Source: Rhodospirillales bacterium
GTDB taxonomy: Bacteria; Pseudomonadota; Alphaproteobacteria; Micavibrionales; Micavibrionaceae
Assembly: GCA_023898765.1 (NCBI GenBank)
Contig: CP060238.1
Span: 428,094-492,093 of the forward strand
Direction of reading: 5' to 3'
Length of the DNA: 64,000 nucleotides
The notes under the pieces are model-generated. The model made no database searches. It was not told where the DNA came from and worked only from the letters and a program-made list of their open reading frames with translations. A program made the position numbers and the translations under genes. Positions 4,689 to 58,426 of the stretch are shown here, piece by piece. How positions within the stretch are numbered: the first letter of the stretch is position 1; each line of letters begins with the position of its first letter.

Positions 4689-5003
4689 TGTATTCCTCCA
4701 ATTGAAGACTTCGGTTTAAATGTTTACTTGAGCGCGACTTACAAAAAAACAAAATCACATCAAGAAAACCCATCCGAGACATCGAATGTGCCCCTATATA
4801 AGCCAGCGTTTAGGCAGAGGGTCAACGCACGCGATGCAAAGATGCAACATTTTTTTGAAGGATGTTGTAATTTTGCAACATCCTGCCCTTAATCATTGCC
4901 ATATCAAGCCTCACCTCCCCCCGGCATAGCGATCAACTATATCTTGAGAGAGAGCCCGTCTCATGCTAATCAGGCAGGAATGCATAAAACCGAGAGAAAA
5001 GTT

Positions 5004-5552: not shown

Positions 5553-5560
5553 GCCTGAAC

Positions 5561-8916: not shown

Positions 8917-9159
8917 ATGTCATTTAAACCGAACTTTTTAGAAGAAATAGGCATAAACGCAGATACAGTCCCCCAAGGTCTTGTTGTCGCTTTCACGGAC
9001 GTAAACCAAACAAATTTGCGGATACAGTCCCCTGAAGGAGAAAATAAAGTGATTGATACCCGGACGATACAAGGATACCAAACATTGGGCGATGTCAAAG
9101 AAACCATCCGAAACACGCTTATCGAATTTGGAGCCAAACCGGCAGAGCTTCGCGTTTGA
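8917..9159 (+). CDS. small hypothetical protein, 80 aa
   Basis: ATG with GGAGA 8 nt upstream and a clean terminator right after the stop. Confidence 0.55.
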   Translation: MSFKPNFLEEIGINADTVPQGLVVAFTDVNQTNLRIQSPEGENKVIDTRTIQGYQTLGDVKETIRNTLIEFGAKPAELRV

Positions 9160-9182
9160 TACCCCTTTTGTATTTTATAGAT

Positions 9183-9217
9183 AAAAAGCCGGGTTTCAAA
9201 AGCCCGGCTTTTTCTTT
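9183..9217 (+). terminator. rho-independent terminator
   Basis: AAAAAGCCGGG ... CCCGGCTTTTT hairpin followed by a T-run. Confidence 0.7.
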
Positions 9218-9230
9218 AGACTAACGACTC

Positions 9231-11160: not shown

Positions 11161-11180
11161 CTTTCTTTTGCCTTTTTGTT

Positions 11181-40406: not shown

Positions 40407-42506
40407 TTAAACCCGTCTTTCATTTGTGCCTTGATGATACCCCCGGCTATGGAAGAAAGCCTGTAAGGCATCAAGCCTGGTTTTTATCTTCGCAAGCATG
40501 TTTTCCTTAAAGGACTGGTTATCTTCATAATTTTGTTCTGCTTCCGCACAAGCCTTCGCAAGCATGTTTGCTCCCAGATTCGCCGCCGCTCCTTTCATGC
40601 GATGCGCAGCCCTCTGCCAGTCTTCACTTTTATCATCCGTGCAGCTTTCTTCCAGTTCGCCGATGCTTAATTCCGTTTGTTTAAAAAACAGATCCAGCAA
40701 CTCTTTCTCCTCTTCGGGATCGCCATCGGTAAATGTTTCGAAATGCTTCATATCAACAGGCGGCTCCAGTTTTTCTTTTTCCGGCGTCGGTGAAGCATCG
40801 TTTGTCGTTTTATTTGAAATTTGTTTTTGTATGGCTTCAATGATTTTATCCGCCTTAACGGGCTTGCTGACATAATCGTCCATGCCTGCTTTCAAACATT
40901 TTTCCCTGTCCCCGATCATGGCATTTGCCGTTAAGGCTATAACAGGGAGATGCCTGTCCGTTCCCTGTTCTTTTTCCCGCAGGATTGTCGTCGCGTGATA
41001 GCCGTCAAGCACGGGCATTTGACAGTCCATCAGAACAACATCATAGGAATTGGCATCAATCATATCCAGAGCTTCCTGTCCATCATGCGCCAGATCAACA
41101 TAGGAAAAGCCGAGCTTTTTAAGCAGTTTTATAATGAAAACCTGATTTACAGGATGGTCGTCAACGGCAAGTATTCTGATATTCTTCCGTATCTCTTCGG
41201 TGTCATAGCTTTTGTCTTTGTCGAGAAGGTTCACCGGCTCCATATCTTCATCGGCTGTGCTCAGAGGCACCGTGAACCAAAATGTCGAACCCTGCCCTTC
41301 GACGCTATCAACGCCTATCTTGCCTCCCATCATATTGATAAGCTGCTGGGTAATGGCAAGCCCCAGCCCCGTTCCGCCGAATTCCCTTGTGACCGAGGTA
41401 TCGGCCTGCGTAAATTTTTCAAAAATGGCGTCTTTTTTATTTTCGGCGATTCCTATGCCTGTGTCTTTGACGGCAATGAACAGGTACGGTTCTTCTTTTT
41501 CAAAAGCGGTTTTCAGGAAAACGGTTACGCTTCCCTTTTCGGTAAATTTGATAGCGTTGCTTATCAGGTTTCTAAGGACCTGTTGTATTCTGCTGTAGTC
41601 GCCAATAACCGTTGAAGGCACTTTTTCATCGCGGTCAAGCGTTAACGCAAGCCCTTTGTCATTCGCAATAGGCAGGAATAGCTGGACAACCTGTTGCGCG
41701 GCGATTCCTATATGGAAAGGCACATTTTCGATTTCCAGCTCACCGGCTTCAATTTTGGAAATATCAAGTATATCGTTTAAAAGAGATAGAAGGTTTTGGC
41801 TTGAGCCATGCAGTATTTCAGCATTGTCTCTCTGATCCGGACTAAGATTGGAATCCAGAATAAATTCGGTCATGCCGATTATGCCGTTTAGAGGTGTGCG
41901 TAATTCATGACTCATATTGGCGAGGAATTCGCTTTTCGCAATGTTTGCAGATTCCGCTTTCTCCTTTTCTTCCCTTAACTCTTCTTCAAAAGATTTTCTT
42001 TCTGTGATGTTGCGTTCTATAGCGGCGAAATGAGTAATGTTTCCTCTTTTGTCTTTTACGGGAACAACGCTGATATCCAGCCAATAGGGGACGCCGTCTT
42101 TGGTATAGTTTTTTAATTCGCCTTGAAACGACCTGCCTTTGGAGAGGGATGTTTTTAAGGCATCGAGGACTTCCCGGCTGGTGTCTTCGCCTTGTAAAAT
42201 GCGCGGTGTTTTTCCTATGATTTCTTCGGCGTCATAGCCGGATATTTTTGAAAAAGCGCCATTAACATAGACGATTTTCGGCCCATTGTTCTCCAGATCT
42301 GCCGTCGTGATGACGATGGCATCGTTGGCGTTAATGACAGCCGCTTCCAGCAATCTGGCGTCTTCATGCAGCTGTTCGTTTAACGCATAGATTTCCCGGC
42401 TTTTTCCTTCCAATAGGGTTTCTGCCTCCTTCCGCGCTTTCTTTTCACGGGCGAGGCGTTTTTCCAGCCGGGAAATTTTCCTGTCTTTATCGATATCTTC
42501 ACTCAT
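40407..42506 (-). CDS. hybrid sensor histidine kinase (coiled coil-PAS-HisKA-HATPase-REC-HPt), HnoK-like
   Basis: H-box MSHELRTPLNGI, G2 GTGLGLAI, REC ILAVDDHP...VLMDCQMP, HPt AAHRMKGAAANLGA. ATG 42506 forms an ATGA overlap with the H-NOX stop. Confidence 0.9.
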   Translation of the reverse strand: MSEDIDKDRKISRLEKRLAREKKARKEAETLLEGKSREIYALNEQLHEDARLLEAAVINANDAIVITTADLENNGPKIVYVNGAFSKISGYDAEEIIGKTPRILQGEDTSREVLDALKTSLSKGRSFQGELKNYTKDGVPYWLDISVVPVKDKRGNITHFAAIERNITERKSFEEELREEKEKAESANIAKSEFLANMSHELRTPLNGIIGMTEFILDSNLSPDQRDNAEILHGSSQNLLSLLNDILDISKIEAGELEIENVPFHIGIAAQQVVQLFLPIANDKGLALTLDRDEKVPSTVIGDYSRIQQVLRNLISNAIKFTEKGSVTVFLKTAFEKEEPYLFIAVKDTGIGIAENKKDAIFEKFTQADTSVTREFGGTGLGLAITQQLINMMGGKIGVDSVEGQGSTFWFTVPLSTADEDMEPVNLLDKDKSYDTEEIRKNIRILAVDDHPVNQVFIIKLLKKLGFSYVDLAHDGQEALDMIDANSYDVVLMDCQMPVLDGYHATTILREKEQGTDRHLPVIALTANAMIGDREKCLKAGMDDYVSKPVKADKIIEAIQKQISNKTTNDASPTPEKEKLEPPVDMKHFETFTDGDPEEEKELLDLFFKQTELSIGELEESCTDDKSEDWQRAAHRMKGAAANLGANMLAKACAEAEQNYEDNQSFKENMLAKIKTRLDALQAFFHSRGYHQGTNERRV

Positions 42507-43045
42507 TGTTTTGTTAAGGTAAAGATCCTGCAAAACTGACCTTCGGTGTTTTTATCTTCACCTTCGATTGTGATGTTTTCCTTGTAAAAATCGGCGCAGC
42601 CCTGCATCAAGCCATGTGCAAAATCGGCAAAAGGGCACTGGGACCTGTAGGTCATTTTTAGCACGTTTCCGTTTTGCCTTTCCGTTTCAAATGAAGGGAG
42701 AACGGCATCCGGATAGAGCTTTTTTACTTCCACGTGAATATAGTCGTGCACGCCTTCCAAAAATTCAAAGGCGGATTTTTGTTCTTCGAACAGTTGGGGC
42801 ATCAGTTTATTGAAACGGAAGAAAAGATGATGCCCGTATTTATAGACCAGATCCCTGACACTCAGTCCGGAATGCTTGCTAAGGGTGCCGACGATTTCGA
42901 GCAGCTCCCGATGATCATAGGTGCCGACGGCCGTATAGGCCCCTCCGGACTCAAGATCGCAATCGTCAAAGACGTCATCCATCATGTCCTCGCCAAATGT
43001 TGCTTCCACCATATCAATAAGCTCTGTGAAAACGATTCCCTTCAT
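42503..43045 (-). CDS. hnoX: heme-NO/O2-binding (H-NOX) sensor protein
   Basis: MKGIVFTEL..., proximal-His region VHDYIHVEVKKLYPDAVLPSF, and MTYRSQCPFADFAHGL (a YxSxR-type motif with Cys in place of Arg). 180 aa. Confidence 0.88.
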   Translation of the reverse strand: MKGIVFTELIDMVEATFGEDMMDDVFDDCDLESGGAYTAVGTYDHRELLEIVGTLSKHSGLSVRDLVYKYGHHLFFRFNKLMPQLFEEQKSAFEFLEGVHDYIHVEVKKLYPDAVLPSFETERQNGNVLKMTYRSQCPFADFAHGLMQGCADFYKENITIEGEDKNTEGQFCRIFTLTKQ

Positions 43046-43089
43046 TGCGTTACCTTTCCTTTCGAAATATTCACAATCTATCCTAAAGT

Positions 43090-43944
43090 CTAACCTGAAT
43101 GGTTTTGTATGTAATGCAGTAATTGCTCTTTCAGGAACGGCTTGGCGATAAAGCCGCTGGCGCCTTCTTCCAGCGCTTCGGCGATATTGTCCAGATTATT
43201 ATTGCTGCTGAACATAACGACACATAGGCCCGGGTCGTTGCGCATAATCCAGCTTAATACTTCACGGCCGTTCTTATCGGGTAAATCAATATCCAGAAAA
43301 ACAATGTCGGGCTGAAAAGAGTGAATTTTGGAAAAGGACTTGTTCGCCGTCGCCGCCGTGACAAGATCACAATCATGTTTGAGGCTTTTTCTTACCATCC
43401 AGCGCGTAACGGGATCGTCCTCGACCAAAAGAACCCTTGTTTGTCCTTGTCTGTTTTTGTTGGTTTTGACAGCGAACGTTCCTATGTCCGGCGCCCCTTT
43501 TTCATCAGGAAAGGCGTAAAGATCGGCATAAGCCGAGGCGGAAACCGAAAGGCTTTCATCCTCTTGTTTAAGCGCGCGCCGAACATATAAAGGCCCCTCC
43601 TGTTCCAGATCATAAATGGCAAGCGCGCTCGATAACGAAGTCTCGTCTTCGATTATATGGCGTATCTGTTCACCGGCCTGGGCCAGAGCGCGTTTTGATA
43701 CGTTCTTGCAAAAAAGATGGATCTGGAAATTTTCACAAAAAAAGACCTCTCCTTCTATCTCTTTGAAATACGATTGTAACAGGGGCTGTATTAAAGGGAT
43801 GCAGCCTGAAAAGGATGCCTTGTCGCCTTCTTCGTCCAATTCGATATGCAGGCACCTCCAGTCCTGCCAACTCAAAGGGGTTTTGCCGATGGATGTAATA
43901 ATTTGAACCAGTCTTTTGTCTTTTTTACCGGATTGAATATCCAT
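43090..43944 (-). CDS. response regulator: unrecognised N-terminal domain + C-terminal receiver
   Basis: REC RVLLVEDDP...IVFLDIDLPD...GFIAKPF at the C-terminus. Start set at ATG 43944 (MDIQSG) with an AGGGGGAAGGA SD. Confidence 0.8.
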   Translation of the reverse strand: MDIQSGKKDKRLVQIITSIGKTPLSWQDWRCLHIELDEEGDKASFSGCIPLIQPLLQSYFKEIEGEVFFCENFQIHLFCKNVSKRALAQAGEQIRHIIEDETSLSSALAIYDLEQEGPLYVRRALKQEDESLSVSASAYADLYAFPDEKGAPDIGTFAVKTNKNRQGQTRVLLVEDDPVTRWMVRKSLKHDCDLVTAATANKSFSKIHSFQPDIVFLDIDLPDKNGREVLSWIMRNDPGLCVVMFSSNNNLDNIAEALEEGASGFIAKPFLKEQLLHYIQNHSG

Positions 43945-44848
43945 TTCCTTCCCCCTTTTGTTTTGCCTGAACGAACGGTGATTTTTCGATGTATTGGAAA
44001 AGCTTCTCCTTTGTAAAAGGTTTGACGACAAATCCTTTGGCGCCCTGCGCGACAGCCTTTAAGACATTTTCCCTGTCTCCCTTACCGCTCAGCATGACCA
44101 CATAAGCGTCAGGATCAATTTCAAAGATTTTTTTCAAAACATCGTGGCCCGTAATGTCAGGAAGTCCGATATCCAGAAAAAGAATGTCGGGCGCTTTGCC
44201 CGCGTAAGTCATAATGGCTTCACGGCCGTTTTTGGCCGTAAGCACATAATGTTCTTTGCCGAGGGCGTTCTTAATCAGCCGCTGCGAAAATAAATCGTCT
44301 TCAACAAAAAGGATTTCAGGGACGTCCCTTGCAGAGCGTCTGGACGATAATGTGGATATAAGCTTTTTTTCAATTTCTATATCCAGAAGTTTTTGCCGGT
44401 ACAGTTCCGCCTCTTTTTCGGCTTTTTGCTGTGCGCGTTTGTTTTTTTCGATTTCACTATTTTCAATTTTACGGGCGCAAATGGGCTTGAGCGCTTCCAG
44501 ATCAACCTTGATTTCATAAAGAAAAGCCAGATCCTTCGAAAACAGAGGCCGGGAGAAGGGGGCAGGCGTAAGTTTGGCGGCTAAATGGGCTAAAAACCGG
44601 CCGAGGTTTTTCTTGGTGATAAACTTTGTCAAAATAAACACGTCGTTATCGTTGCAAAGAAAAACCTCCCCCGCTTTATCGTCAAAAAAGGCATCAAGTT
44701 CTTTTATGAAGGGCTGAAACCATTTTTGTGACTCAATGCCGGATTGAGAGAACTTTAAATAAAGGCATCTTTGCGATGTGTTCTTTTTCCAATGGTTTTG
44801 AATAGAGTCAAACAAGGACCTTTCGGCATCTTCTTTAACAATTTTCAT
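43925..44848 (-). CDS. response regulator: unrecognised N-terminal domain + C-terminal receiver (paralog of 43090-43944)
   Basis: REC ILFVEDD...ILFLDIGLPD...GFVVKPF. The N-terminal ~190 aa is paralogous to the neighbouring gene. Confidence 0.8.
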   Translation of the reverse strand: MKIVKEDAERSLFDSIQNHWKKNTSQRCLYLKFSQSGIESQKWFQPFIKELDAFFDDKAGEVFLCNDNDVFILTKFITKKNLGRFLAHLAAKLTPAPFSRPLFSKDLAFLYEIKVDLEALKPICARKIENSEIEKNKRAQQKAEKEAELYRQKLLDIEIEKKLISTLSSRRSARDVPEILFVEDDLFSQRLIKNALGKEHYVLTAKNGREAIMTYAGKAPDILFLDIGLPDITGHDVLKKIFEIDPDAYVVMLSGKGDRENVLKAVAQGAKGFVVKPFTKEKLFQYIEKSPFVQAKQKGEGNGYSIR

Positions 44849-44907: not shown

Positions 44908-45080
44908 AAATTTTTGTGCTTATTTTTCAACGGCTTATGCGAATCCTTCCTTAAGTTATTCTCATTTTGAAACGTTTTATTTTGATAATTTTTATGCATA
45001 AATCTCAAATTAGAACGCTTTTTTAATCTTTATTTGTTAGCCTGATGACAGGGGTAAAAACATTTCGGGAGACCAGCCAT

Positions 45081-45986
45081 ATGTCCGATTCAATCCTGAT
45101 CGTTGAAGATGATCCTATGCAGCAAAAAATGCTTGGAACGTTGCTGCGCCGGAAAATCGGGTTTGAATCACAAGTCGCCCCTAACGGGCGGGAGGCTTTG
45201 GACATTCTTGGCAGGGATGACAAAAGAGCTATAAAGCTTGTGATTCTTGATATTGACATGCCCGTTATGGGGGGGATGGAGGCTCTGGAGATTATGGCGC
45301 AGCGTTATCCGGGCCTTCCCGTCATTATGCTGACGGGGACCAGGGATATTGAAGAGGCGGTCAAGGCGATCAAGCTTGGCGCTATCGATTTCATGACCAA
45401 GCCGTATGAAGGGGAAAGGATGGCAATAACGGCTAAAAATGCTCTTAAGCTCAGCATCCTTTCTAAAGAAGTAAAACGGCTAAAAAACGAAAAGGAAGGC
45501 CACTATAGATTTGACCATTTAATAGGCCATGACGGCGGTCTGCAGGAGGCCGTTAATATGGGGCGCAAAGCCGCAGCATCTGACATACCCGTCCTTATTT
45601 CCGGAGAGACAGGCGTTGGAAAGGAAGTGTTCGCCCAAGCCATCCACGGGGAAAGTGCGCGCTTGGGAAACCCGTTTATCGCCGTCAACTGTGGCGCTAT
45701 TCCGGCACAGCTCGTTGAAAGCACCTTGTTCGGACATGAAAAAGGGGCTTTTACCGGCGCAACAGATAAGGCCACAGGCAAGTTCCGCGAAGCCGAAGGG
45801 GGCACGATTTTTCTGGATGAAGTGGGCGAGCTTCCACTGGATTCCCAGGTAAAGCTCTTGCGTATCCTTCAGCAAAAAGAGGTTGAGCCTGTCGGGGCAA
45901 GCAAAGCCGTTCCTGTAAACATACGCGTTTTATCGGCGACCAACCGCAACCTTGAAGAAGAAGTCAAGGCAGGAAACCTTTGTTAA
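45081..45986 (+). pseudogene. NtrC-family sigma-54-dependent response regulator, 3'-truncated
   Basis: REC (ILIVEDDP...ILDIDMP) + AAA+ (GETGVGKE, GAFTGA, IFLDEVGE). It ends ...EEVKAGNLC* where homologs continue FREDLYYRL. The rest of the AAA+ module and the HTH are absent. Confidence 0.8.
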
Positions 45987-46078
45987 ACCTGCTGGCATGG
46001 TTGTCTTTAAACACTCTCGGCCACCGCAAGTCCAGCCTTTAACAGGAGGTTGCTTATGCAGCACGACATCACAAAACT

Positions 46079-46369
46079 TTGCGCAGATTCTTTGCGCTCC
46101 TATCGTCATGTACTACCGGCCCGAATGGGGAGAAAGTCAGCGGCCATTATCAGTTAGGATATGAACGCTACGAGCCTTGTGAAGATGGCTATGTATTGCG
46201 GGAAAGCCAGCAATACAACCAAGCAAAGTGCTATGTTGCAAGATGCGCGCCGGGAAGATACAGCAATGATAATCATTATTGCGACAGCTACCAAGCCGTT
46301 TTGCGCCCAAAACCCAACTACGTAAAAATGTGGGTTGATGGTGATTATCTGGGGCAGTATTTTTACTAA
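46079..46369 (+). CDS. possible Cys-rich lipoprotein, 96 aa (doubtful start)
   Basis: MRRFFALLSSC lipobox-like N-terminus, but a TTG start without an SD. A strong AGGAGG-ATG at 46056 opens a different 33-codon frame, so this may be frameshifted. Confidence 0.3.
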   Translation: MRRFFALLSSCTTGPNGEKVSGHYQLGYERYEPCEDGYVLRESQQYNQAKCYVARCAPGRYSNDNHYCDSYQAVLRPKPNYVKMWVDGDYLGQYFY

Positions 46370-46444
46370 CACCTCTTGCGGTTGTTAAATCGGTGGATTT
46401 TTTGCAAAGTTCTTGAAAATCTGGCGTTTTTTCTAAATTACCCC

Positions 46445-46472
46445 TTGTCCCCCCCCCCCCGATTTTTATAAT
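46445..46472 (+). promoter_or_regulatory. sigma-70-like promoter with a poly-C tract in the -35/spacer region
   Basis: TTGTCC (46445-46450), 16-nt spacer, perfect TATAAT (46467-46472). The C12 run occupies the end of the -35 element and most of the spacer. Confidence 0.55.
46449..46460 (+). repeat. homopolymeric C12 tract
   Basis: Twelve consecutive C, 76 nt upstream of ATG 46536. Confidence 0.95.
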
Positions 46473-46535
46473 ATAAACTGTGGAATTCTAAGTGTTTTCC
46501 GCTCACGATTGTATTCAACCCAGATTTTGTTCGAT

Positions 46536-49500
46536 ATGCGCTTGCCGGGAAAACAGTTTAGACATTTTACCACTGGACTTATGTTCCTTTTGCTCATCCC
46601 GCTCCACTGGGGATTTTCGGCAAGCCCGGTCAATGCAGGGGAAACTTCATCCTCTCTGGTATTTCAAAAACTTGATAATATTGATCCCGAAGCCCTTTCT
46701 CCTGAAGAAGCGAAAAGCCTGATTCGTGAACTGAAAAGTTTGGCGCAGAAAGAGGAGGCGGCTTCTTCTTCATTATATAAAAGCACCCCTTATCCCAAAA
46801 AAGAGCGTGAATACAGCGCGTGGGAGCGGCGTATCGCGCAGGAAGTCATTGCCACGGGGCAAATGCTGGAGGGCGACCCCAGATTTGATGATGTGGTGTC
46901 CACGTTGGCGCAGCGTGGTCGCTCGATATTGCCGGATGGTTCTAACGTGACGCAGGACTGGGTGCGGGAGAATTTGCAGGATGTTTTACCCGCGATTGAT
47001 AATAAAATGGCGGCAGCGGCGATGAATGCGGCAACGGGAGAGATTGCCAGAGGAACCGGCGACATGGCGAACGGTTTTGCCCAATCACAGATAGGATCGC
47101 AAATTGGCTTATCCGGGGAAGGGCAAAGCTATGATCTAGGCGGCAATCTTAAACAAACGGCCATTCGCAGCGGCCTGGAAGGGGTAAAGGCAGCAGCGTC
47201 GGCAAGCGATATTTATGCTCTGAATCACCTGGAACTGGAATACTCCCTTTCGGGTGACGGAATTGATGAATACTCGGTTTTAACCGTCCAACCGCTCTGG
47301 GACAGTGCCGATTTGCGTCATAACATTTTCGCGCAGGCTTCCTACGCCAACAAACAGGTTGAAGATATAGGTGCGGATACAAGCCAGCGCCGCGATACGG
47401 TGAATGCCGGGCTTGCTTACCGCTACATTACACCAGATGAACAGCATATGTTCGGGGCCAATGCCTTCTTCGATCACCAGTGGCCGTATCACCATAATCG
47501 CATGTCGTTGGGGCTGGATTATAAAACCAGCCTGTACGGTGTGGCGTTCAATAAATATGTCGGCCTGTCCGACTGGCGCGGACGTGATGACGGTTATGAA
47601 GAAAAAGCATTAGGAGGTGAAGATCTGGAAGTTTCGGGGCGTTTGCCCCAAGCCCCGGAACTGGAAGTGTTTGCCAAGGGCTATCATTGGAGTCAGGAAA
47701 AGACACCTGTTATCAATCCGGACGGGGACGATATATGGGGCTATCAGTTTGCGGCGGAATACACGCCGGTGAATGCCTTTACGATCCGTTCCCAAGCGAC
47801 AAGAGACAATGAAATGGACGATATGGAAGGGCAGATTACCATGCGCCTGAATTATCGTTTCGGGCAGGGATGGGATGATTTGTGGAAGCGCCCGACTTAC
47901 AATCTTGATTCCGTTCTGGATCGGCGTTTTGAGAAAGTGCGCCGGAACAATGAAATACGGGTACAGGTGCGTCAAGACCCTGATGTAACGGCGCGCGTGA
48001 CCTTTGCACAAGGGGCAAATGTCAGTGTCGGGCAATCTCTGGCCTTCGGCACGACGATTACGACCGGCGGCGCGGGCGGCGACGGAGCCACGGTAGTCTT
48101 CGGCAACGGCGCAAGGCTGGATGTGGGACAAAATACGCAAGTGCGGATTGAAAAAGACCAGATCGTCCTGATTACCGGGATTATACAATTCACCAGCGGC
48201 AGTGGCGGCATAACGGTTATTGCCGTGCCGGGCGGTACAATCGACCTGATAGGAACGGACGTGGATGTGCGCGTATCGGGCGGCACCACGACGCTGCGGG
48301 TGCGTGATGGCGCAGCGGACTTTACAGACGATACCGGTACAACGCGCGTGAATACGGAAGAACTGGCCGAAGCACAGGATGGGGATGGGCTGGCACCGCA
48401 AATCCGCGCCGAAGGTACGGCCATTTATGAGACACATACAAGTGAAGCGCACACGCAGCTTGATCTCGTCGGCCCGCAGCCTTCCAATCCGAAAGCCGCG
48501 CCTTTTGCCGATGAAGCGGTCAGTGTGGCCGGCACGCTGGCTACGGGCAATACACTGACCTTTACCGTGCCATTGACGGGAAGCGTCACGGTCACCGGAA
48601 TGCCGAGGCTACGCTTTACCCTGGGCGGTCTGGATCGTCTGGCCGATTATGCGAGCGGCAGCGGCACATCCACGCTTGTCTTTACTTATGATGTTGTGGG
48701 TGCGGATGAAACATTGTCCAATATCGTTGCCGAGGAAATCGAGAAGAACGGCGGTACGTTGACCGGCACAAACGGCGCGCCGATGGTGCGGACGGTCAGC
48801 GGCGGATTGTCCGGCACGGTGCCGGATGTCACCATGCCGACGATTGCAGGCTTTACGGCGGTATCGAGCGGCGGCGACCCGGCAGGAATTGGCGATATAA
48901 TCACGGTGACATTAAACGCGAATGAAGACCTTGTGCAAAGCGGCACGCCGAGCTTAACGCTGAATATTGGTGGCACGTCCCGCACCGCGAATTTCTCCGC
49001 GATCAATGCCGGTAACGCCGAATTTACCTACACGGTGCAGGCGGGGGACAATGACGCGGACGGGATCACGATTACCGCGATCACTGTGGCGGCGGATGAG
49101 CTGGAGGATGCGTCCGGCAACGATCTGGATACGACATTTGCTCTGCCACATAATTTAAGCCTTGATGTAAGCACGATCCTTCTAGGTCTTTCATCTTGCC
49201 CGTCCGGTGATTTGTCCGCCCCGGCCAATTCAGGCTGTGCGCGCCTGTTTGGGGCGGATCCCACGGATATGGATGATGTGATGGTTTATGCCGGGGATGT
49301 ACCGGGCACAACCACGGACTTCTTCGTGCGCCGCTGTGATCTGGGGCAGGACTATGACCCGGTTGACGACCGCTGTGAAAATGGCGGCGGCGATCCGAAT
49401 ACCAGAGATACGATGCAATGGAAAAATGCCAATACGGAATCCGACACAACGAATATAGGAACGGGTACGGCTTGGACAAATGTAAATGCCACGGATGGCC

Positions 49501-49862
49501 CTGGCAATACGGCAACGCTTGTGGCCGATGTATCAGGTACGCACACGGCGGCGGAAACCTGTAATGCTCTGTCCGGCGGTGGCTGGTATCTGCCGGCGAT
49601 TTCGGAACTGGATGTGATCTATGCCAATTTGAATGCGACAGACGATCCCGACCATCCATTGCCGACAGTCAATGATGCGACAGATGATGATAACAGCGGC
49701 ACGACCGGTCCGTTGCGTAGCAGCTTTGATCTCAGCGGCCAATGGTACTGGTCGTCCTCGGAGCCCAATAGCGGCGGCGCATGGATACAGCGCTTCAGTG
49801 ACGGTGGCCAGAGCAGCAGCAATAAGACGCCTTTCCGTAGCGTCCGCTGTGCCCGGAGATGA
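46536..49862 (+). CDS. inverse autotransporter (intimin/invasin-family) adhesin with FecR-like, Ig-like and C-terminal DUF1566 (Lcl C-terminal, lectin-like) domains
   Basis: Signal peptide ...SPVNA-GE. The beta-domain matches the invasin pattern (GLAYRY...FGANAFFDH...RMSLGLDY...NKYVGLSDW...EEKALGGEDLEVSGRLP...AAEYTPV...RLNYRFGQGW). The C-terminus reads GGWYLPAISEL...WYWSSSE...AW...RSVRCAR. Confidence 0.85.
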   Translation: MRLPGKQFRHFTTGLMFLLLIPLHWGFSASPVNAGETSSSLVFQKLDNIDPEALSPEEAKSLIRELKSLAQKEEAASSSLYKSTPYPKKEREYSAWERRIAQEVIATGQMLEGDPRFDDVVSTLAQRGRSILPDGSNVTQDWVRENLQDVLPAIDNKMAAAAMNAATGEIARGTGDMANGFAQSQIGSQIGLSGEGQSYDLGGNLKQTAIRSGLEGVKAAASASDIYALNHLELEYSLSGDGIDEYSVLTVQPLWDSADLRHNIFAQASYANKQVEDIGADTSQRRDTVNAGLAYRYITPDEQHMFGANAFFDHQWPYHHNRMSLGLDYKTSLYGVAFNKYVGLSDWRGRDDGYEEKALGGEDLEVSGRLPQAPELEVFAKGYHWSQEKTPVINPDGDDIWGYQFAAEYTPVNAFTIRSQATRDNEMDDMEGQITMRLNYRFGQGWDDLWKRPTYNLDSVLDRRFEKVRRNNEIRVQVRQDPDVTARVTFAQGANVSVGQSLAFGTTITTGGAGGDGATVVFGNGARLDVGQNTQVRIEKDQIVLITGIIQFTSGSGGITVIAVPGGTIDLIGTDVDVRVSGGTTTLRVRDGAADFTDDTGTTRVNTEELAEAQDGDGLAPQIRAEGTAIYETHTSEAHTQLDLVGPQPSNPKAAPFADEAVSVAGTLATGNTLTFTVPLTGSVTVTGMPRLRFTLGGLDRLADYASGSGTSTLVFTYDVVGADETLSNIVAEEIEKNGGTLTGTNGAPMVRTVSGGLSGTVPDVTMPTIAGFTAVSSGGDPAGIGDIITVTLNANEDLVQSGTPSLTLNIGGTSRTANFSAINAGNAEFTYTVQAGDNDADGITITAITVAADELEDASGNDLDTTFALPHNLSLDVSTILLGLSSCPSGDLSAPANSGCARLFGADPTDMDDVMVYAGDVPGTTTDFFVRRCDLGQDYDPVDDRCENGGGDPNTRDTMQWKNANTESDTTNIGTGTAWTNVNATDGPGNTATLVADVSGTHTAAETCNALSGGGWYLPAISELDVIYANLNATDDPDHPLPTVNDATDDDNSGTTGPLRSSFDLSGQWYWSSSEPNSGGAWIQRFSDGGQSSSNKTPFRSVRCARR

Positions 49863-49999
49863 ACCATTTAATCATTTAATAATTTAACTGTCCCCGCGAA
49901 GCGGGGTCGCTACAAATTTTTTGCAGAATTTTTTAAAAACATCTTTTCTTACAGTTGGTTAATACGCACAATAGAGGTCTGTATGAAGGGTGTTTTTTA

Positions 50000-50347
50000 A
50001 TGGCGCAATACCAGCATTTGCCAATTTACAAGTTGACCTATGATCTGCTTTTGCGGATTATGCAGGTGACGAAGAATTTTCCGCGCGAATATAGGCACAC
50101 ACTTGGGCAGAAGCTGAAAGAAGAAATTATTGAGCTGGTCGTTATGATCTATAAGGCCAACACAGCCAAGGACAAGGAGCATCACATTGAAATGATCCTT
50201 GAGCGCATTCAGGTGGTGCAGTTATTGATAAGATTGTCGCATGATATAAGAATATTGCCGCGTAAGCATTACGTAGACCTTGCCGAGAAAATCGACAGCC
50301 TGGCTCGTCAGGCGCAAGGGTGGCTCAAGAGTTCGGGAAAGAGATAG
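50000..50347 (+). CDS. four-helix-bundle protein (23S rRNA intervening-sequence protein / Avd-like family)
   Basis: MAQYQHLPIYKLTYDLLLRIMQVTKNFPREYRHTLGQKL... is typical of this family. 115 aa from ATG 50000. Confidence 0.8.
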   Translation: MAQYQHLPIYKLTYDLLLRIMQVTKNFPREYRHTLGQKLKEEIIELVVMIYKANTAKDKEHHIEMILERIQVVQLLIRLSHDIRILPRKHYVDLAEKIDSLARQAQGWLKSSGKR

Positions 50348-50426
50348 CCAGAACGGGTTGCGGCCAAGGCCCGGCCCGGCGAGCGTGTTCATCTCGGATG
50401 ATGGCGGTAACGGTTTCAAAAGGAAA

Positions 50427-50467: not shown

Positions 50468-52222
50468 CTAGGCCGCTTCCGCGTATTCTTCCTCGTCCTC
50501 AAAGTCGGCGGATTCTTCAAAATTCTCTTCCTCCGGCTCATCTTTGGCATCGGGATTGATAGCGGGAAACTGCATGGCTTCGGGAATCCAGAACGTAGCT
50601 TTTAATTCATCTTGGTTCGGAGCTTCCAGTGTCAAAACGTGCTGGAAGTGCTTTGCCATTGAGGACACAAGTTCTTTCTTCTTGTACCCCGCCGCACTAC
50701 CGTACTTTTGGGAGCAACCGGCCTCGCTGATAATTTTCAAAAGCTGTTCCTTGTTGCGGCGTTTCAGGAACGCTTCGTCAGGCCGCCAGTAATCCCGCAT
50801 ATCGACATTCAAATCCGCCGCTATCTTGTTAAACAGGCTGTCTGCATTGGTATCAAGACGATCAACAAAGCTCTGACCAAACTCTAAAACTTCCAAGGCC
50901 ACCAGAATTTCTTCCAGTTGTTCATCGGACAAGGACTGTACGGCCATATATGCCCCTTCCATATTGTAAGAAAACAAATAGCCCAAACTATGCCAACTTT
51001 GGCGGTCTTCGTCCTGTTCAATGGCTTCCTTATCGACACCGAACAATCCCAGAAGATCAGTGCATTTATCATTGATAACCTTGAGGGCAGGGGGGGTATA
51101 TCCTTCCTGCATAAAATAAATCAAGGCATCGTGATTTTTAAAGCGATACAACTTTTGGGTCACAGCCAGTTCCTTTGCTTTTCTCGGATTTCCGAGCAAA
51201 GCGGCCTGTACTGCCACGCTCTTGTGCATGGACATATTACGCACAAGCGGGGTGGAGTAGGTGGGTTTCGGCTTTTTCAGGGCATCCGTGGTCGATTTAT
51301 CGGCCTTGGTTTTGGTAAGTCCTTCATGGACTTCTACTTCACCATCTGAATGAATAGCCACGATAACGCCGCCTTTCTCACCTTCTGGGGCTTCGCCGTA
51401 TTCCCATGAATGGAAATGCCCTTCAAGCAATTCAGCCCATTCAGCGGTGTTTGAGTGTTCTTCTACGAGTTTTTCTGCCGCCGCTTTTTGCAACTCGAAA
51501 AATTGCTCAAAATCGTTGAAATAGGTGGCATCATCCTCGGCGAGAAGGTCTTGCGTGAAATCGCCTGTGTATTCGGCTTTATCAAAAATTGCCATAGACA
51601 CACTCGGCAAATTGCCAAGAATCATGTCTTTTACATCTTCCGCGTCATTGTAACTGGAAGTCGCGCGGCCTAAGACCCTTTCCTGCTGTTCATGGCTTCC
51701 GATGCTCAAGGCTTCGGCTTTTGAAAGCGTGAGTTCACCTTCGATTAAAGCCTGTTTCGCCGCTTCACAAAGGTCTGTCAGAGCAAGGCGGCGTTTGATA
51801 GTCGCCACGGCAAGACCCGTTTTTGCGACAATATCATCCAGTCTTTCGCCATCCTGAACCAAGAGCTTGATAGCTTCGGCTTCTTCCATTGGAGAGAGGT
51901 CTTCCCGTTGCATATTTTCCATTGTGGCAATACGCTGTGTTTCTTCATCCGATAAGTCGGCTTTGATTTCAACCGTCACCTCGTAATCTTCGGGCAAATC
52001 GCCTTGCTCCTGCAATAGAGACAAAGCCCGAAAACGGCGTTCACCGCAAATAATCGGGTGCATTTTCTTTCTGCCTTTGGGTTTGCCGACAATCAGGTTT
52101 TGAAGCAATCCGTCCGTTTTAATGGACAGTGCCAATCCTGCGATAGTGGCATCATCAAAGTTTTTACGCGGGTTTCCAGTTGAAGGCTGGATTTTTGAAA
52201 GTGGTAATGTTTGCAAAGTCAT
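50468..52222 (-). CDS. ParB/Srx N-terminal domain protein of the plasmid/ICE-borne type, 584 aa
   Basis: LPLSKIQPSTGNPRKNF...LLQNLIV...ICGERRFRAL ParB-like nuclease fold motifs, a long C-terminal extension and an acidic tail. ATG 52222 with a GGAGAA SD. Confidence 0.8.
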   Translation of the reverse strand: MTLQTLPLSKIQPSTGNPRKNFDDATIAGLALSIKTDGLLQNLIVGKPKGRKKMHPIICGERRFRALSLLQEQGDLPEDYEVTVEIKADLSDEETQRIATMENMQREDLSPMEEAEAIKLLVQDGERLDDIVAKTGLAVATIKRRLALTDLCEAAKQALIEGELTLSKAEALSIGSHEQQERVLGRATSSYNDAEDVKDMILGNLPSVSMAIFDKAEYTGDFTQDLLAEDDATYFNDFEQFFELQKAAAEKLVEEHSNTAEWAELLEGHFHSWEYGEAPEGEKGGVIVAIHSDGEVEVHEGLTKTKADKSTTDALKKPKPTYSTPLVRNMSMHKSVAVQAALLGNPRKAKELAVTQKLYRFKNHDALIYFMQEGYTPPALKVINDKCTDLLGLFGVDKEAIEQDEDRQSWHSLGYLFSYNMEGAYMAVQSLSDEQLEEILVALEVLEFGQSFVDRLDTNADSLFNKIAADLNVDMRDYWRPDEAFLKRRNKEQLLKIISEAGCSQKYGSAAGYKKKELVSSMAKHFQHVLTLEAPNQDELKATFWIPEAMQFPAINPDAKDEPEEENFEESADFEDEEEYAEAA

Positions 52223-52443
52223 GGTATTTCTCCTTTTTGCTTTGGTTAGGTTAAAAAGTGCGTGTCGCACTTCTTTCCTATGGGCCGCGCAGCGGCTTCT
52301 AAGCGCCAGGATCCGTCAAGCTTGAAACCCTTCGTAGAAGGGGCAGGCGAAATTTTATTGTCTTTCCTAGCTTGCGACGGAAAGCAGTAAAATTTTCGGC
52401 TTTCGGGCTTTACGGAGACAGGCAAGAGAAAAAACAAAAAAGC

Positions 52444-52495
52444 CCTTAAACCCCAAAAATTGGAATCATCCCTTCCTTAAACCCCAAAAATTGGA
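52444..52495 (+). promoter_or_regulatory. two perfect 21-bp direct repeats (CCTTAAACCCCAAAAATTGGA), 31-bp period, upstream of fic
   Basis: Copies at 52444-52464 and 52475-52495. The second ends 25 nt before ATG 52521. Confidence 0.6.
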
Positions 52496-52520
52496 TAAAG
52501 TGGCCTTGAAAGGATTTTTA

Positions 52521-54023
52521 ATGCCCACTTTTTTTGACGATCTGCCGGAAATCTTTGTCTCCAATACCGAAATTTCAGGATTGGTGAGAAAAGCCGTGAA
52601 ATCTGGAAAGCTCCGAAAACTCGGCACAAGACTTTACACAAAAGATCTGGAAGCAACGCCAGAAAGCATCGTGAAGCGTAACTGGTATTTTTTGCTTAAA
52701 CGTTATTACCCCGATGCCCTGATTGCCGACCGCACCGCGATTGAAAACCAGCCTGCGGCAGACGGCTCGGTGTTTATCGTTTCAAAGAAAAAGAGAGAAA
52801 CCGTCCTGCCAGGGATTATTTTTAAACCAAGGCCGGGAGTAGGGGGCTTGGAAACAGACCGGCCTTTCCTGGGCGGGGTACATCTGTCCTCAACCGGGCG
52901 CGCCTATCTTGAAAATATGAGGCCGTCCCGCGCGCGCGGCGGCGATACCTCCCGCACCTTATCCCGAAAAGAAATTGAAGAACGTCTTGACCGCGTATTG
53001 CGGCAAAGCGGTCATGCCGGACTGAATGCCATTCGGGATGAAGCCCGCGTATTGGTAAAAAAGCTTGATGCGGAAAAAGAATTTAAGGAACTGGACGAGC
53101 TGATCGGATCGCTGCTTGGAACGCGCGACACAGAAATGAAAAGTGATATAGGCAAGGCCAGGAAAGGGGGGATGCCCTTTGATCCTGTGAGATTGGAAAA
53201 ATTCATCACATTGTTTGAAGCCTTAAAAGCATCTGCCCCCGTACACCGCCGCGCGCGAGAAACCACCGGGGCGGCCAGAACCAATTTGGCGTTTTTTGAG
53301 GCTTATTTCTCTAACTTCATTGAAGGGACGGAATTTGAAATTGATGAGGCCGTTGATATTGTCTTTAATGGCCGCATCCCGAATGACCGGCCTGAAGACG
53401 CGCACGATGTTTTAGGGACATTCAGAATTGTTTCCGATACTTCGGAAATGGCCAAATTGCCAACTTCAGCGGAAGAATTGTCCCATTTGCTGAAAAGCCG
53501 TCACGCGGTTTTTATGGAGCTGCGGCCGGATAAACACCCCGGCGCGTACAAGATCAAAAACAACCAGGCCGGCTCAAGTCTTTTTGTCGCCCCTGAACTG
53601 GTGGAAGGCACACTAGAAAAAGGATTTGAAATATACCAATCATTGAGCGTCCCTTTGTACCGAGCCATTTTTATGATGTTCCTGATTAGTGAAATTCACC
53701 CGTTCACGGACGGTAACGGGCGAGCAGCACGAATTATGATGAATGCGGAGCTGATGGCGGCTGGTGAAGAAAAAATCATTATTCCCACGATCTATAGAAG
53801 CAATTACCTCTCTTCGCTCAAGGCACTAACCCATAACGGACTAACAGAGCCACTAATCCGAACACTCGACTTTGCTCAAAAATATACAAGAAGCCTCGAT
53901 TGGGATGATTTTGAAGAAGCGCGGCGCCAGCTCGCGGGAACAAATGCCTTTATGGATCCGAATGAAGCTGACGAAAACGGCGTGAGGCTGAAACTTTATC
54001 AGGAAAGCGAGCGCAGCAGCTAA
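52521..54023 (+). CDS. Fic family protein (probable AMPylase) with long N-terminal extension
   Basis: Fic motif HPFTDGNGRAAR. Upstream inhibitory-helix-type motif SNFIEG. ATG 52521 with an AAGGA SD (the TTG at 52491 lies inside a repeat). Confidence 0.9.
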   Translation: MPTFFDDLPEIFVSNTEISGLVRKAVKSGKLRKLGTRLYTKDLEATPESIVKRNWYFLLKRYYPDALIADRTAIENQPAADGSVFIVSKKKRETVLPGIIFKPRPGVGGLETDRPFLGGVHLSSTGRAYLENMRPSRARGGDTSRTLSRKEIEERLDRVLRQSGHAGLNAIRDEARVLVKKLDAEKEFKELDELIGSLLGTRDTEMKSDIGKARKGGMPFDPVRLEKFITLFEALKASAPVHRRARETTGAARTNLAFFEAYFSNFIEGTEFEIDEAVDIVFNGRIPNDRPEDAHDVLGTFRIVSDTSEMAKLPTSAEELSHLLKSRHAVFMELRPDKHPGAYKIKNNQAGSSLFVAPELVEGTLEKGFEIYQSLSVPLYRAIFMMFLISEIHPFTDGNGRAARIMMNAELMAAGEEKIIIPTIYRSNYLSSLKALTHNGLTEPLIRTLDFAQKYTRSLDWDDFEEARRQLAGTNAFMDPNEADENGVRLKLYQESERSS

Positions 54024-54113
54024 TTTTTGGGGCGCTCTGGTGCTGTTGAACGTACCAGAGGGCAATTTTTTTTCGTGAGAACGACGAGAGAGCATGTTTT
54101 TTCACCTGAAAAT

Positions 54114-54578
54114 TCAATATTTGTTGCTTTTTCGCCATTCTCGCGGCGTTTGAAACGTCCCGCCCCATATACCTCTTTTGCCGATTTGAGCCTGATCCTG
54201 GGCGGCAGCGTAAAATCCATGACTGAAATATCTGTAGTCAATAGCCCACCCGCCGCGCACCATGAGATCGGCAAGATCGTCGCCAGCAACGAAGCATTGC
54301 GCCACAGTACGGGTTTCGCTTTTGGCGCGAGGCTTCTCCTGACATTGCAGCTCGTCCGGGTCAATCAAGCTGACCAAGTATTCGCGTGCCTGCCGGCCAC
54401 ACGGATATTCCCGGCCGTCTTGCCAGCAGAATTGATGCAGCTCCACGGCGTCAATCCCCCAGAGCCGGATTTCCCGCGTGCCTAAAACAAAACTGTCGCC
54501 GTCTTTGACGTAGAGTTTTGTACCCGCCGCGGCCGGATATAAAAATCCTGAAAGCAGCAAACAACCTAAGAAAATCAC
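54114..54578 (-). CDS. thermonuclease (SNase-like) family protein
   Basis: ...VKDGDSFVLG.REIRLWGIDAVE...GRQAREYL...YRYF pattern. GTG start. The N-terminal signal peptide is possibly clipped by the upstream junction. Confidence 0.75.
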   Translation of the reverse strand: MIFLGCLLLSGFLYPAAAGTKLYVKDGDSFVLGTREIRLWGIDAVELHQFCWQDGREYPCGRQAREYLVSLIDPDELQCQEKPRAKSETRTVAQCFVAGDDLADLMVRGGWAIDYRYFSHGFYAAAQDQAQIGKRGIWGGTFQTPREWRKSNKY

Positions 54579-54600
54579 AATCGGCAGGAATCGTGTTAAT

Positions 54601-54918
54601 CTATTGTTCTCTAAGGCTAAGGTATTTGACTAGATTGGCTTCTGTTACGGCCTGATCCTGTGTCAAATTGCCGGCAATAAGACCCTTCGTGACTTCGGTG
54701 TAACCTGTTTGCCGATCGACTGTAATAACGTATGGCTCAAAAGTTTTTAGCGGCAGTAGGAAAAGAAGACAGAGTATGCAGAGTACAGAAACAACCATAC
54801 TTGCAGACGCAACAATCCATGCTCGGTTTCTTGACTGTACGGCATTAGCGACAATCTCATTTTCCCAAGTTTGTCCTTTTTTATAATAGTCTTCTTTTTG
54901 CTTAGGATTCATAAGCAT
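54601..54918 (-). pseudogene. virB8: VirB8-family T4SS gene, 3'-truncated (105 codons)
   Basis: N-terminal cytoplasmic part + TM + ...PLKTFEPYVITVDRQTGY...ANLVKYLSLREQ*. Full-length VirB8 is about 230 aa. Confidence 0.7.
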
Positions 54919-54920
54919 CT

Positions 54921-55928
54921 TTAAAACCCTCTAATCTTTTTAATAGTTTGCCCCAAACGATTTTTTGCCGCCGCCGCCGTTAATTTGGGGTGTCGGGCAG
55001 CATTATACCCAATGACACTGGCTTTCCCTGTAGCCGCAGGAGCGCGACGTGCTATTGCTGTACCAGCTCGGCTAAACCATGAGCCAGCTCCCAATGTTGA
55101 GAGTGATAACCCGCCGGTGATGGAAGCGGCCATATTCATTACTTGCGCGAGCAATAAAACTGCGACAACCGATGTAAACAAGAACGGCCCGATAGCGGTA
55201 ATAAGAGGATCATCAGGATTCGAGTTATTCTCCATGAATTGAAGCGGCATTTCTGCAAGTGTCAGCATTAACGCGAGCAGGGCATATACAAAAATTGGGA
55301 TGACAGCATAATTGAGCAGGGTTCGCAGCCAGCCTTCAAAGAGGTTTTTTGTATTGTTGAATATGAGCAGCAAAATAAACAGCGGGCCTACAGCAAGAAG
55401 AATGGCTACGGCTAATTTTGCCAAAACAATGAGCATAGCTGCAAAGGCAGTAAATGAGATAGCTCCAACCCAGATAGCCCCGGCATAGAAATAAAGCCCC
55501 CATTTTGTCCAGCCAGCACCCTCTAAAAGCTTTTCTGAAACTTCCATAGAGCGATCATAAAATTGCGACAACGCAAGATTTGCGGTGGTTTCATCATTGG
55601 CAACGGGGGCGGCTAATGTGTCTGCAGCGCCCTGCATAATCTGACCTGCTACATCGGAGGGAAGGTCAGTAGCCATGTCATAGACCAAGATCATAAAAGT
55701 ATTCCACTCGGTCGCTACGACCAGAAGAATAATGATTTTAAGGACATTGACGAGAAGATCTGGAGCTGAGAAACGCCCGCTGACAATCACTTTATACCCA
55801 AATACTGCGATAAAAATGATAAACATTAACCGCCATAGTATTTGCACAACAGGCGTAAGGCTTCCAAAGGCCCCATTGACCAAAGCAAACACTAGATTGT
55901 CAACATTTGTAATAAGCGTTTCTATCAT
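54921..55928 (-). CDS. virB6: VirB6/TrbL-family T4SS inner-membrane protein
   Basis: 335 aa polytopic membrane protein with the VirB6-like layout, sitting between VirB4 and VirB8 remnants. Confidence 0.75.
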   Translation of the reverse strand: MIETLITNVDNLVFALVNGAFGSLTPVVQILWRLMFIIFIAVFGYKVIVSGRFSAPDLLVNVLKIIILLVVATEWNTFMILVYDMATDLPSDVAGQIMQGAADTLAAPVANDETTANLALSQFYDRSMEVSEKLLEGAGWTKWGLYFYAGAIWVGAISFTAFAAMLIVLAKLAVAILLAVGPLFILLLIFNNTKNLFEGWLRTLLNYAVIPIFVYALLALMLTLAEMPLQFMENNSNPDDPLITAIGPFLFTSVVAVLLLAQVMNMAASITGGLSLSTLGAGSWFSRAGTAIARRAPAATGKASVIGYNAARHPKLTAAAAKNRLGQTIKKIRGF

Positions 55929-55931
55929 TTT

Positions 55932-56387
55932 TTACGGGTTTTCCGGCATAATGGCTTCAAGAGCTTTTTTTCTAGCTTCGGCCTCTTGTTCTTTTCTGGA
56001 TTTAGTTGTTTTTTGAGGAAGGCGCATAGCATCTCTGGCTTTATCCGCATCGTATTGGTTGGCTTTTGAAGCCTGAACACGATCATTGAAGGCCATCCAA
56101 ATAGTAGGCAGTTTCACATGATCGGGTTTGACGTTGCCAAAGCCGGCCTCAGTCATAATTGTTGCAAGGCTTTCCGCTGTGTTCTCACAGTTTTCTAAGG
56201 CGGTTTCAGTCGCGCTGCTTTGGTCGACCCAAAGCTGTCCGCATTGTTCAATAGCGGGTGTTTTTTTCTGGTATATCCATTCCGCTAATTCTTTAGAATC
56301 GCGCTTTTCAAGTGGGTTTTTACCGTCGTTACATGCTGTAAGGCCAAGCCCCGCTACCATTACGAAGAGAAGAGTCGTTTTTCTCAT
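55932..56387 (-). CDS. lipoprotein, 151 aa (possibly an entry-exclusion-type lipoprotein)
   Basis: Lipobox GLGLTAC. Its position immediately upstream of virB6 matches that of eex in IncN-type operons. The functional call is speculative. Confidence 0.45.
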   Translation of the reverse strand: MRKTTLLFVMVAGLGLTACNDGKNPLEKRDSKELAEWIYQKKTPAIEQCGQLWVDQSSATETALENCENTAESLATIMTEAGFGNVKPDHVKLPTIWMAFNDRVQASKANQYDADKARDAMRLPQKTTKSRKEQEAEARKKALEAIMPENP

Positions 56388-56572
56388 GCTTTTGCTTTCC
56401 CGTTATTAAAAAGTTCCGCCATATTGATAGGTATATGGTTACAAGGGTTTTCCGACATTGAAGCACTTGGAGGGCAGGGGGCTTTTTTCTCGTTGTACTT
56501 CAGCGACGAGCAACCGCCTAACGCCAAGGCTGGAAGTGCTAAAAGTGAAATTAAAAATAGTCGTTTCATCAT
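56384..56572 (-). CDS. small lipoprotein, 62 aa (T4SS-associated, VirB7-like?)
   Basis: Lipobox ALGGC, Pro/Cys-containing mature part, ATGA-type overlap with the next gene. Confidence 0.45.
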   Translation of the reverse strand: MMKRLFLISLLALPALALGGCSSLKYNEKKAPCPPSASMSENPCNHIPINMAELFNNGKAKA

Positions 56573-56660
56573 CTACTCCATTTAGTTTTGAGGTAATTCC
56601 ATAGCTTCTCTATGGCAGTAAAGCCAAGGATGGTGAGTAAGGCTATAGAGCAAAGTTTTT

Positions 56661-58412: not shown

Positions 58413-58426
58413 CTACCAACGGATTT

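Follow-up and report, generated by a model that had tools for sequence, protein, structure and literature searches.

Introduction

Homopolymeric tracts that switch promoters are textbook material in a few host-adapted pathogens; hardly any examples have been described from environmental alphaproteobacteria or for conjugative elements. In Neisseria meningitidis, opc is expressed at a low level with 11 C's and at a high level with 12 C's, as recounted in PMC3447861, which cites Sarkari 1994; in mismatch-repair-proficient N. meningitidis, none of 89 colonies varied at the opc poly-C tract (0/89; PMC3447861). In Bordetella, the length of a C-stretch influences transcription of fim2, fim3 and fimX. 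Among near-identical B. pertussis strains these tracts range from 10-15 nt (fim2) and 13-18 nt (fim3), while fimX has C7 in most strains and its C8 allele changes expression 3.8-fold (PMC1891110). Diversity-generating retroelements (DGRs) provide another point of comparison: among DGR targets, those with DUF1566 are classed as “Legionella-type”, and in Legionella itself the DGR resides on an integrative conjugative element (PMC5758913).

Here we analyze an unbroken run of 12 cytosines (C12) upstream of an adhesin gene in a 64-kb stretch of DNA from a Rhodospirillales bacterium, the whole of which we call the window. The original prediction had read this run as a candidate phase-variation switch within the promoter of the gene. 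In Neisseria opc (poly-C) and porA (poly-G), a C/G run of ~9-14 nt overlaps the −35 hexamer and spacer of a sigma-70 promoter in front of a gene for an outer-membrane adhesin or porin, and C12 has the same layout in a putative promoter. Those two tracts are polymorphic among isolates of a pathogen that is adapted to its host and has many contingency loci, whereas the tract described here is almost always C12 in consensus sequences, its host is an environmental alphaproteobacterium, and the 64 kb contain no other long repeat. As in the Bordetella fim promoters, where the C run is flanked by an upstream activating element on one side and the −10 hexamer on the other, the run precedes the −10 hexamer of an adhesin gene. 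However, the fim promoters need BvgA and a conserved fim box, while no activator site was identified here, and the wide range of lengths that fim2 and fim3 display in near-clonal strains is not seen at C12.

Results

A C12 run within a candidate promoter

The C12 homopolymer (46449-46460, plus strand; direct sequence reading and run-length count) lies between a −35-like hexamer, TTGTCC (46445-46450, plus strand; 4/6 to TTGACA), and a perfect −10 hexamer, TATAAT (46467-46472, plus strand). The final two bases of TTGTCC are C1 and C2 of the tract, which contributes these 2 nt to the −35 hexamer and a further 10 of the 16 nt of the spacer; the adhesin gene begins at ATG 46536. All of these coordinates, as given in the original prediction, proved exact. 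Apart from C12, the longest C or G run in the 64 kb measures 7 nt. C runs of 4, 5, 6 and 7 nt occur 140, 39, 7 and 1 times in the 64-kb window, an approximately four-fold drop per extra base, and extrapolation from these counts would predict ~0.001 C12 runs by chance. The tract therefore belongs among homopolymers of at least about 9 nt that lie far beyond chance for the genome, and no other long simple repeats were found in the 64-kb window.

TTGTCC/N16/TATAAT is the best match to the promoter consensus between 45900 and 50500 (10/12). It is on the same strand as the gene, within an intergenic gap of 166 nt and 64 nt 5′ of the ATG. The score alone is not rare: the window contains 12 matches of at least 10/12, compared with 13.9 ± 3.9 in shuffles. 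Because the window has many matches of this quality, the weight of this one comes from its position and conservation, and from the shuffle counts we calculate that about 0.02 chance matches would be expected at this position.

The hexamers are part of a ~170-nt promoter module that starts at 46370, directly 3′ of the TAA of the upstream ORF. Its A/T-rich upstream part (46370-46433, plus strand) is conserved, as judged by identity to relatives, and the module also includes a second, weaker promoter-like pair, TTGAAA (46413-18) and TAAATT (46434-39), separated by 15 nt. Downstream of the −10 hexamer follows a predicted 5′ untranslated leader of ~57 nt (46476-46535, plus strand), with no evident Shine-Dalgarno sequence before ATG 46536. 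An 11-nt inverted repeat (46490-46500 and 46548-46558; 91% complementary) links the leader with codons 5-8 and brackets the start codon; by its position, this repeat could occlude translation initiation. An Rfam search of 46000-46700 (E<=1) returned no family, and nothing significant was seen in the local structure around the tract.

Conservation and length of the tract in relatives

Relatives (designated L001-L018) were collected by a genome scan, a metagenome pattern scan, a protein search, and exact-protein look-ups of 90% cluster members. The protein search with the adhesin produced 58 homologs, and the metagenome pattern scan contributed a single extra locus, L005. No match was obtained from PLSDB plasmids by distant blastn, from IMG/VR by DNA pattern and protein searches, or from an exact-protein look-up with the window adhesin. 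The promoter module with its tract occurs in 13 further public assemblies (14 including the window), which fall into five gene lineages of 83-100% DNA identity, or 83-90% across lineages. The presence of the same tract in 13 other independent assemblies rules out an assembly artefact as its origin. In homologs with protein identity <=83% (L003, L004, L007-L009), the upstream DNA is unrelated and the tract is absent; its history can thus be followed no further than the closer relatives.

The tract is found in all 14 assemblies and is unbroken in 13 of them. It is exactly C12 in 10/14 (nine relatives and the window), corresponding to four of the five diverged lineages. The TATAAT hexamer is invariant in 14/14 sequences, and the TTG of the −35 hexamer is kept in 13/14. 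The base following this TTG is either T (window type) or missing (lineage B), and this T beside the tract divides two lineage types, with spacers of 16 and 15 nt, respectively. The arrangement TTGT plus C12, for which the window serves as reference, is shared by L011 (gene 100% identical), L014 (99.6%) and L016 (87%; the most diverged lineage). L005 has TTGT plus C11 (gene 99.4% identical; contig coverage 3.5x), and L002, also of the TTGT group (gene 97.4% identical), has C6 plus one lost T. TTG plus C12, 1 nt shorter and with a 15-nt spacer, is found in L006 and in each of L010, L012, L013, L015 and L017. The remaining two alleles are TTG plus C13 in L018, an error-prone assembly, and an interrupted TTGCG plus C10 in L001, the total length of which is as in the TTG group.

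Three of the four length variants (L005, L018 and L002) are doubtful, either technically or biologically. The C13 of L018 is unreliable because its contig shows further homopolymer indels in the alignment and the adhesin gene is broken into three ORFs. In L002, the promoter core (2900-2935) has lost 7 nt, which destroys the TTG and leaves C6, and a frameshift lies within the variable region (VR) of the gene (6196-6315); L002 looks like a decaying copy, with misassembly as the alternative. All indels of the module in reliable assemblies fall at or adjoin the tract (the lineage T indel, −1 in L005, −7 in L002), a clustering that is expected of any long homopolymer.

The most diverged lineage is informative as to constraint. 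Between L016 and the window, 41/42 positions are identical in a 42-nt core (46434-46475) that includes the tract, 56/64 in the upstream module (61-64/64 in the other lineages), 37/62 (60%) in the leader, and 666/916 (73%) over the first 900 nt of the CDS. That the core is kept at 41/42 while the 5′ UTR drops to 60% and the CDS to 73% indicates that the core is under constraint. Across the relatives, CDS identity to the window is 73-91%, compared with 56-64/64 for the upstream module. Judging from these alignments, we find that the core promoter is the most constrained part of the locus and that the tract is real and maintained.

Invariance of tract length across strains, which the original prediction had named as evidence against a switch, is nearly what we observe at the consensus level, where length variation appears weak. 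Five relatives (L010, L012, L013, L015 and L017) carry a gene that is 100% identical over 3.26 kb, with a different VR in each and C12 in all; turnover of the VR by the retroelement is therefore faster than change in consensus tract length. Furthermore, the number of C's is shared by the TTGT and TTG lineages while the total spacing is not (16 vs 15 nt), which is not predicted by selection on spacer length alone. Nevertheless, consensus invariance is a weak test of phase variation: the proven opc switch gave 0/89 varying colonies, and fimX is C7 in most strains.

Upstream boundary and choice of promoter

The original prediction placed the tract in the promoter of the adhesin gene. The best regional match, the conserved core and the position of the run between TTG and TATAAT support this placement, while the frequency of 10/12 matches weakens the case from consensus score. 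The 5′ edge of the module offers a further line of evidence, since members of two IS families are inserted exactly there and cut off upstream transcription. IS-bearing copies retain an intact gene in most cases, and their VR is still diversifying. A promoter must therefore be contained in these 170 nt, except in the case of read-out transcription from the IS. At the TAA directly upstream of the module, L010/L012/L013/L018 carry an IS5-like element (DDE_Tnp_1; about 5000-5900), and L002 and L014 carry an IS630 element (about 4900-5800). In L014, the adhesin lies between two IS630 copies (the second at 9606-10440) in a composite-transposon-like arrangement that lacks the accessory gene bAvd.

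We therefore regard TTG/C-run/TATAAT as the best promoter candidate. If this is indeed the promoter, slippage in the tract must alter the −35/−10 spacing, as the tract is located between TTG and TATAAT.

A sigma-54 promoter was also considered, prompted by an adjacent sigma-54 activator, and was rejected as no GG-N10-GC match was seen by eye. The activator itself, a sigma-54-dependent response regulator in the 45045-46100 region, sits just 5′ of the left breakpoint of the cassette (46100). It is truncated, ending at 45986 within its AAA+ domain and without a DNA-binding HTH, and it is chromosomal rather than element-borne.

The adhesin is an inverse autotransporter

The gene downstream of the tract (46536-49862, plus strand) encodes a protein of 1108 aa which Pfam, AF2/Foldseek and the 58 homologs identify as an inverse autotransporter adhesin, as originally predicted. 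Pfam matches comprise IAT_beta (residues 278-472, E 1e-32), a FecR-like domain (residues 515-594, E 2e-05; 25.4 bits, cut-off 24), and Lcl_C/DUF1566 at the C-terminus (residues 975-1107), the latter at 28.6 bits and thus under its 34.9-bit cut-off. An AlphaFold2 model of the adhesin (32 homologs as input; mean pLDDT 72.7) places 12 strands across residues 233-441. Foldseek comparison of this model with the PDB gives 4E1T as the best match (E 1e-16, TM 0.81), then 5G26 and 4E1S; the modeled barrel reaches TM 0.78-0.81 to invasin/intimin beta-domains. The overall layout consists of a signal peptide, a helical N-terminal region, the barrel (~233-441), the FecR-like domain, Ig-like beta domains, and a DUF1566/Lcl_C tip, the signal-peptide-like N-terminus being read from the sequence. 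The adhesin thus combines the signal peptide, 12-strand barrel and C-terminal passenger of type Ve proteins. The assignment of the C-terminal tip as lectin-type draws on the sub-threshold Lcl_C match, precomputed Lcl_C annotation in most homologs, and the DGR pattern of the VR; a PDB sequence search with the C-terminal domain gave insignificant matches only.

Similar to intimin and invasin (type Ve), the adhesin has an N-terminal 12-strand barrel followed by a beta-rich passenger and a putative lectin-type tip, the tips of intimin and invasin being C-type-lectin-like. In contrast to these proteins, it lacks LysM and has a long helical N-terminal region, a FecR-like domain and a DGR-type DUF1566 tip, and its gene is found on a conjugative element of environmental alphaproteobacteria. 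From Met16 onward, the adhesin is identical to USO04140.1 (Rhodospirillales bacterium); the NCBI start for this identical protein is Met16 (46581), compared with ATG 46536. The current pipeline annotation of the gene is “inverse autotransporter beta domain-containing protein” only.

The gene ends in the variable region of a decayed retroelement

Comparison with the TR of relatives identifies the 3′-terminal 120 nt of the adhesin gene (49743-49862, plus strand) as the VR of a DGR. A GC hairpin, CCCCGC-GAA-GCGGGG (49892-49906, plus strand), lies 30 nt 3′ of the stop codon, and its exact sequence is kept in 12/12 relatives reaching that far. This is the usual position of a DGR target-recognition hairpin, a role the hairpin may fill, and it may also act as a terminator. 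Further downstream lies a bAvd-like DGR accessory gene of 115 aa (50000-50347, plus strand; Pfam bAvd E 7e-19), such that an Avd-type gene adjoins the DGR target in the window. A bAvd gene is likewise found 3′ of the adhesin in L010-L013 and L015-L018.

Downstream of the adhesin, L012, L013, L015, L017 and L018 carry bAvd, a 120-nt TR, and an RT on the opposite strand (RVT_1, 386 aa, YVDD). Differences between TR and VR are located at TR adenines in 12/13 cases in L013 and 12/14 in L012, and occur in AAY codons. These two contigs possess one common TR and unlike VRs (9100-11400), and within the L010/L012/L013/L015/L017 lineage every contig has its own VR. Because the TR is shared and the VR is distinct per contig, the DGR of the relatives is evidently active.

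The window, which is without its own TR, has a VR that differs from the relatives' TR at 19 positions, 16 of them at TR adenines. This VR is identical in L011 and 1 nt off in L014. No RT was found in the window by tblastn with the relatives' RT, and no TR or TR/VR repeat was found in it either; an intact DGR in the window is thereby ruled out. With TR and RT missing, the VR of the window is frozen.

Taken with the element context described below, these sequence features identify the adhesin as the variable protein of a Legionella-type DGR on a conjugative element. Similar to the Legionella pneumophila DGR (LdtA; DUF1566/CLec2 class “d”), the relatives have a DUF1566-type VR, an Avd-like gene, a TR and an RT, their TR-VR differences are adenine-specific, and the element lies beside type IV secretion genes. 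Unlike the Legionella DGR, the target is an inverse autotransporter and not a lipoprotein, the RT strand is opposite to that of the TR, and the window is without TR and RT. A literature search of open-access papers returned none joining DGRs with inverse autotransporters.

The cassette and its mobile surroundings

The cassette fragment that the window has in common with intact elements spans 46100-50423 (plus strand; blastn of the window vs L013). The left breakpoint (46100) lies inside a 155-aa ORF, the 5′ end of which is lost while 46100-46369 remains. The right breakpoint lies 76 nt 3′ of bAvd, upstream of the expected TR site, and the divergence between the window and the intact elements follows GGTTTCAAAAGG. 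L011, a short-read contig, spans exactly 46100-50425. In the relatives, the cassette adjoins type IV secretion genes (SLT, TrbC, VirB3, VirB4, VirB8-like, TrbL).

To the right of the cassette, the region 50468-59686 contains conjugative-element remnants: a PRTRC-type ParB (minus strand), Fic (plus strand), TrbL (minus strand), a 151-aa ORF (minus strand) and HipA (minus strand). VirB4 (56661-58304, minus strand) is missing its first ~255 residues. The order of the remnants matches that expected from a circular permutation of the intact element, with the break between VirB4 and the 155-aa ORF. Near the right end of the window there is a lambda-family phage portal gene (61153-62376, minus strand), which suggests a prophage or more mobile DNA beside the conjugative remnants. 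Immediately to the left of the island (40407-44848) is a group of signalling genes, which encode an H-NOX (haem-NO-binding) protein, a PAS-containing hybrid histidine kinase with Hpt, and two response-regulator-domain proteins. Otherwise, the window consists of origin-proximal chromosomal DNA with rho, mnmE, mnmG, holA and leuS.

Near-identical copies of the element occur in MAGs labelled Rhodospirillales, Alphaproteobacteria, Verrucomicrobiota and Omnitrophota (L001, L005, L016, and cluster members P0062-P0071), and a Micavibrio chromosome carries a 76% homolog. The mixed MAG labels reflect either a mis-binned mobile element or a broad host range.

Discussion

To the original prediction, this analysis adds two aspects: the DGR context of the adhesin, and a tract that is conserved rather than visibly variable. 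We consider the tract a candidate member of the known promoter-homopolymer switch type, and assign a probability of about 0.5 to the reading that C12 is maintained as a site of slippage within the spacer of the adhesin's sigma-70-type promoter. A real and conserved tract in core-promoter position supports the slippage switch that was originally proposed, and a target that is a surface adhesin counts in the same direction; a length that is almost always C12 stands against it. That the promoter is active here, that the tract slips at a useful rate, and that expression is set by spacing are three points that we infer.

Slipped-strand gain or loss of a C would alter the distance between the −35-like TTG and TATAAT, and with the spacer shifted to 15, 16 or 17 nt, a minority of cells would transcribe the adhesin gene less or more strongly. 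The consensus alleles all have spacers of 15 or 16 nt, which are sub-optimal, and resting expression would presumably be low or intermediate. Gain of one or two C's would move the spacer toward the 17-nt optimum and give rise to high expressers, whereas losses would lower expression. The lineage with the active DGR has a 15-nt spacer, which would make a very poor promoter in E. coli terms, and this argues against the switch.

A different function for the run would be that of a cis element of fixed length, whether a rigid G:C spacer, a regulator site, or a G12/i-motif-type structure of the template strand, such that length variants would merely be deleterious mutations. We think this unlikely. 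An exact C12 is retained in four lineages with genes 10-17% different, the C count is equal in the TTGT and TTG contexts despite their unequal spacing, and the strongly shortened tract of L002 accompanies a frameshifted VR, as for a dead gene, all of which a fixed element would explain. However, no regulator or family is known that needs a perfect 12-nt homopolymer, a C-to-G interruption is tolerated in L001, where the total length is kept, and the blank Rfam search and lack of significant local structure provide no sign of such an element. In addition, spacers are normally unconstrained, and a perfect homopolymer is hard to account for without mutability or very recent common descent. The tract could instead be a neutral passenger in a module that spread recently by recombination, with a run that has not yet decayed and slips without an adaptive role. 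The module and leader are indeed 95-100% identical among lineages with CDS at 85-91%, length variants are few, and mosaicism is evident in the genes (for L002, 91.6% identity over the first 900 nt vs 97.4% overall), consistent with recombination. Yet the upstream part of the module in L016 carries 8 changes in 64 nt vs one in the 42-nt core, which speaks for constraint and not for recency, and it would still have to be explained how a 12-nt run arose in a genome of 51% G+C in which other G/C runs are <=7 nt; neutral carriage thus also seems to us rather doubtful.

It is improbable, in our view, that the promoter lies elsewhere, for example at the upstream pair TTGAAA/TAAATT, so that the run would belong to the leader or to an ORF extended at its N-terminus. 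Within a leader, the run could act in RNA as a C-rich Rho-loading or sRNA-target site. The upstream pair is kept in most relatives, but its spacer is 15 nt and its −10 hexamer weakens to CAAATT in L016, and a perfect, invariant TATAAT would be left unexplained. As for an ORF extended from the TTG through the tract, TTG 46445 is in frame with the ATG in the spacer-15 alleles, and the frame is open; this extension is ruled out by the wrong frame in the window and a stop in L016, and it would bury the signal peptide.

Should the tract be fixed at 12, the question becomes why a promoter spacer conserves a perfect homopolymer. In either case, the window clearly exemplifies DGR decay that has left a frozen VR. 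More tentatively than for the slippage tract itself, we propose that the adhesin may be under two independent hypermutation layers that move jointly on a conjugative element, with the DGR editing the ligand-binding tip and the promoter poly-C gating display stochastically. If so, the binding specificity displayed would be set by the DGR and display itself by slippage. The adhesin would then be the first of its kind in two ways, as an inverse autotransporter that serves as DGR target and as a DGR target subject to simple-repeat phase variation, in an environmental Rhodospirillales/Micavibrio-like lineage. As TR and RT are lost in the window, only the on/off layer could still vary there, and in DGR-decayed copies of this kind the poly-C gate would be the sole variation left. 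Adhesins of this type might serve cell-cell contact or mating, and, if the switch is real, the locus would be a useful model of how mobile elements handle costly, exposed adhesins.
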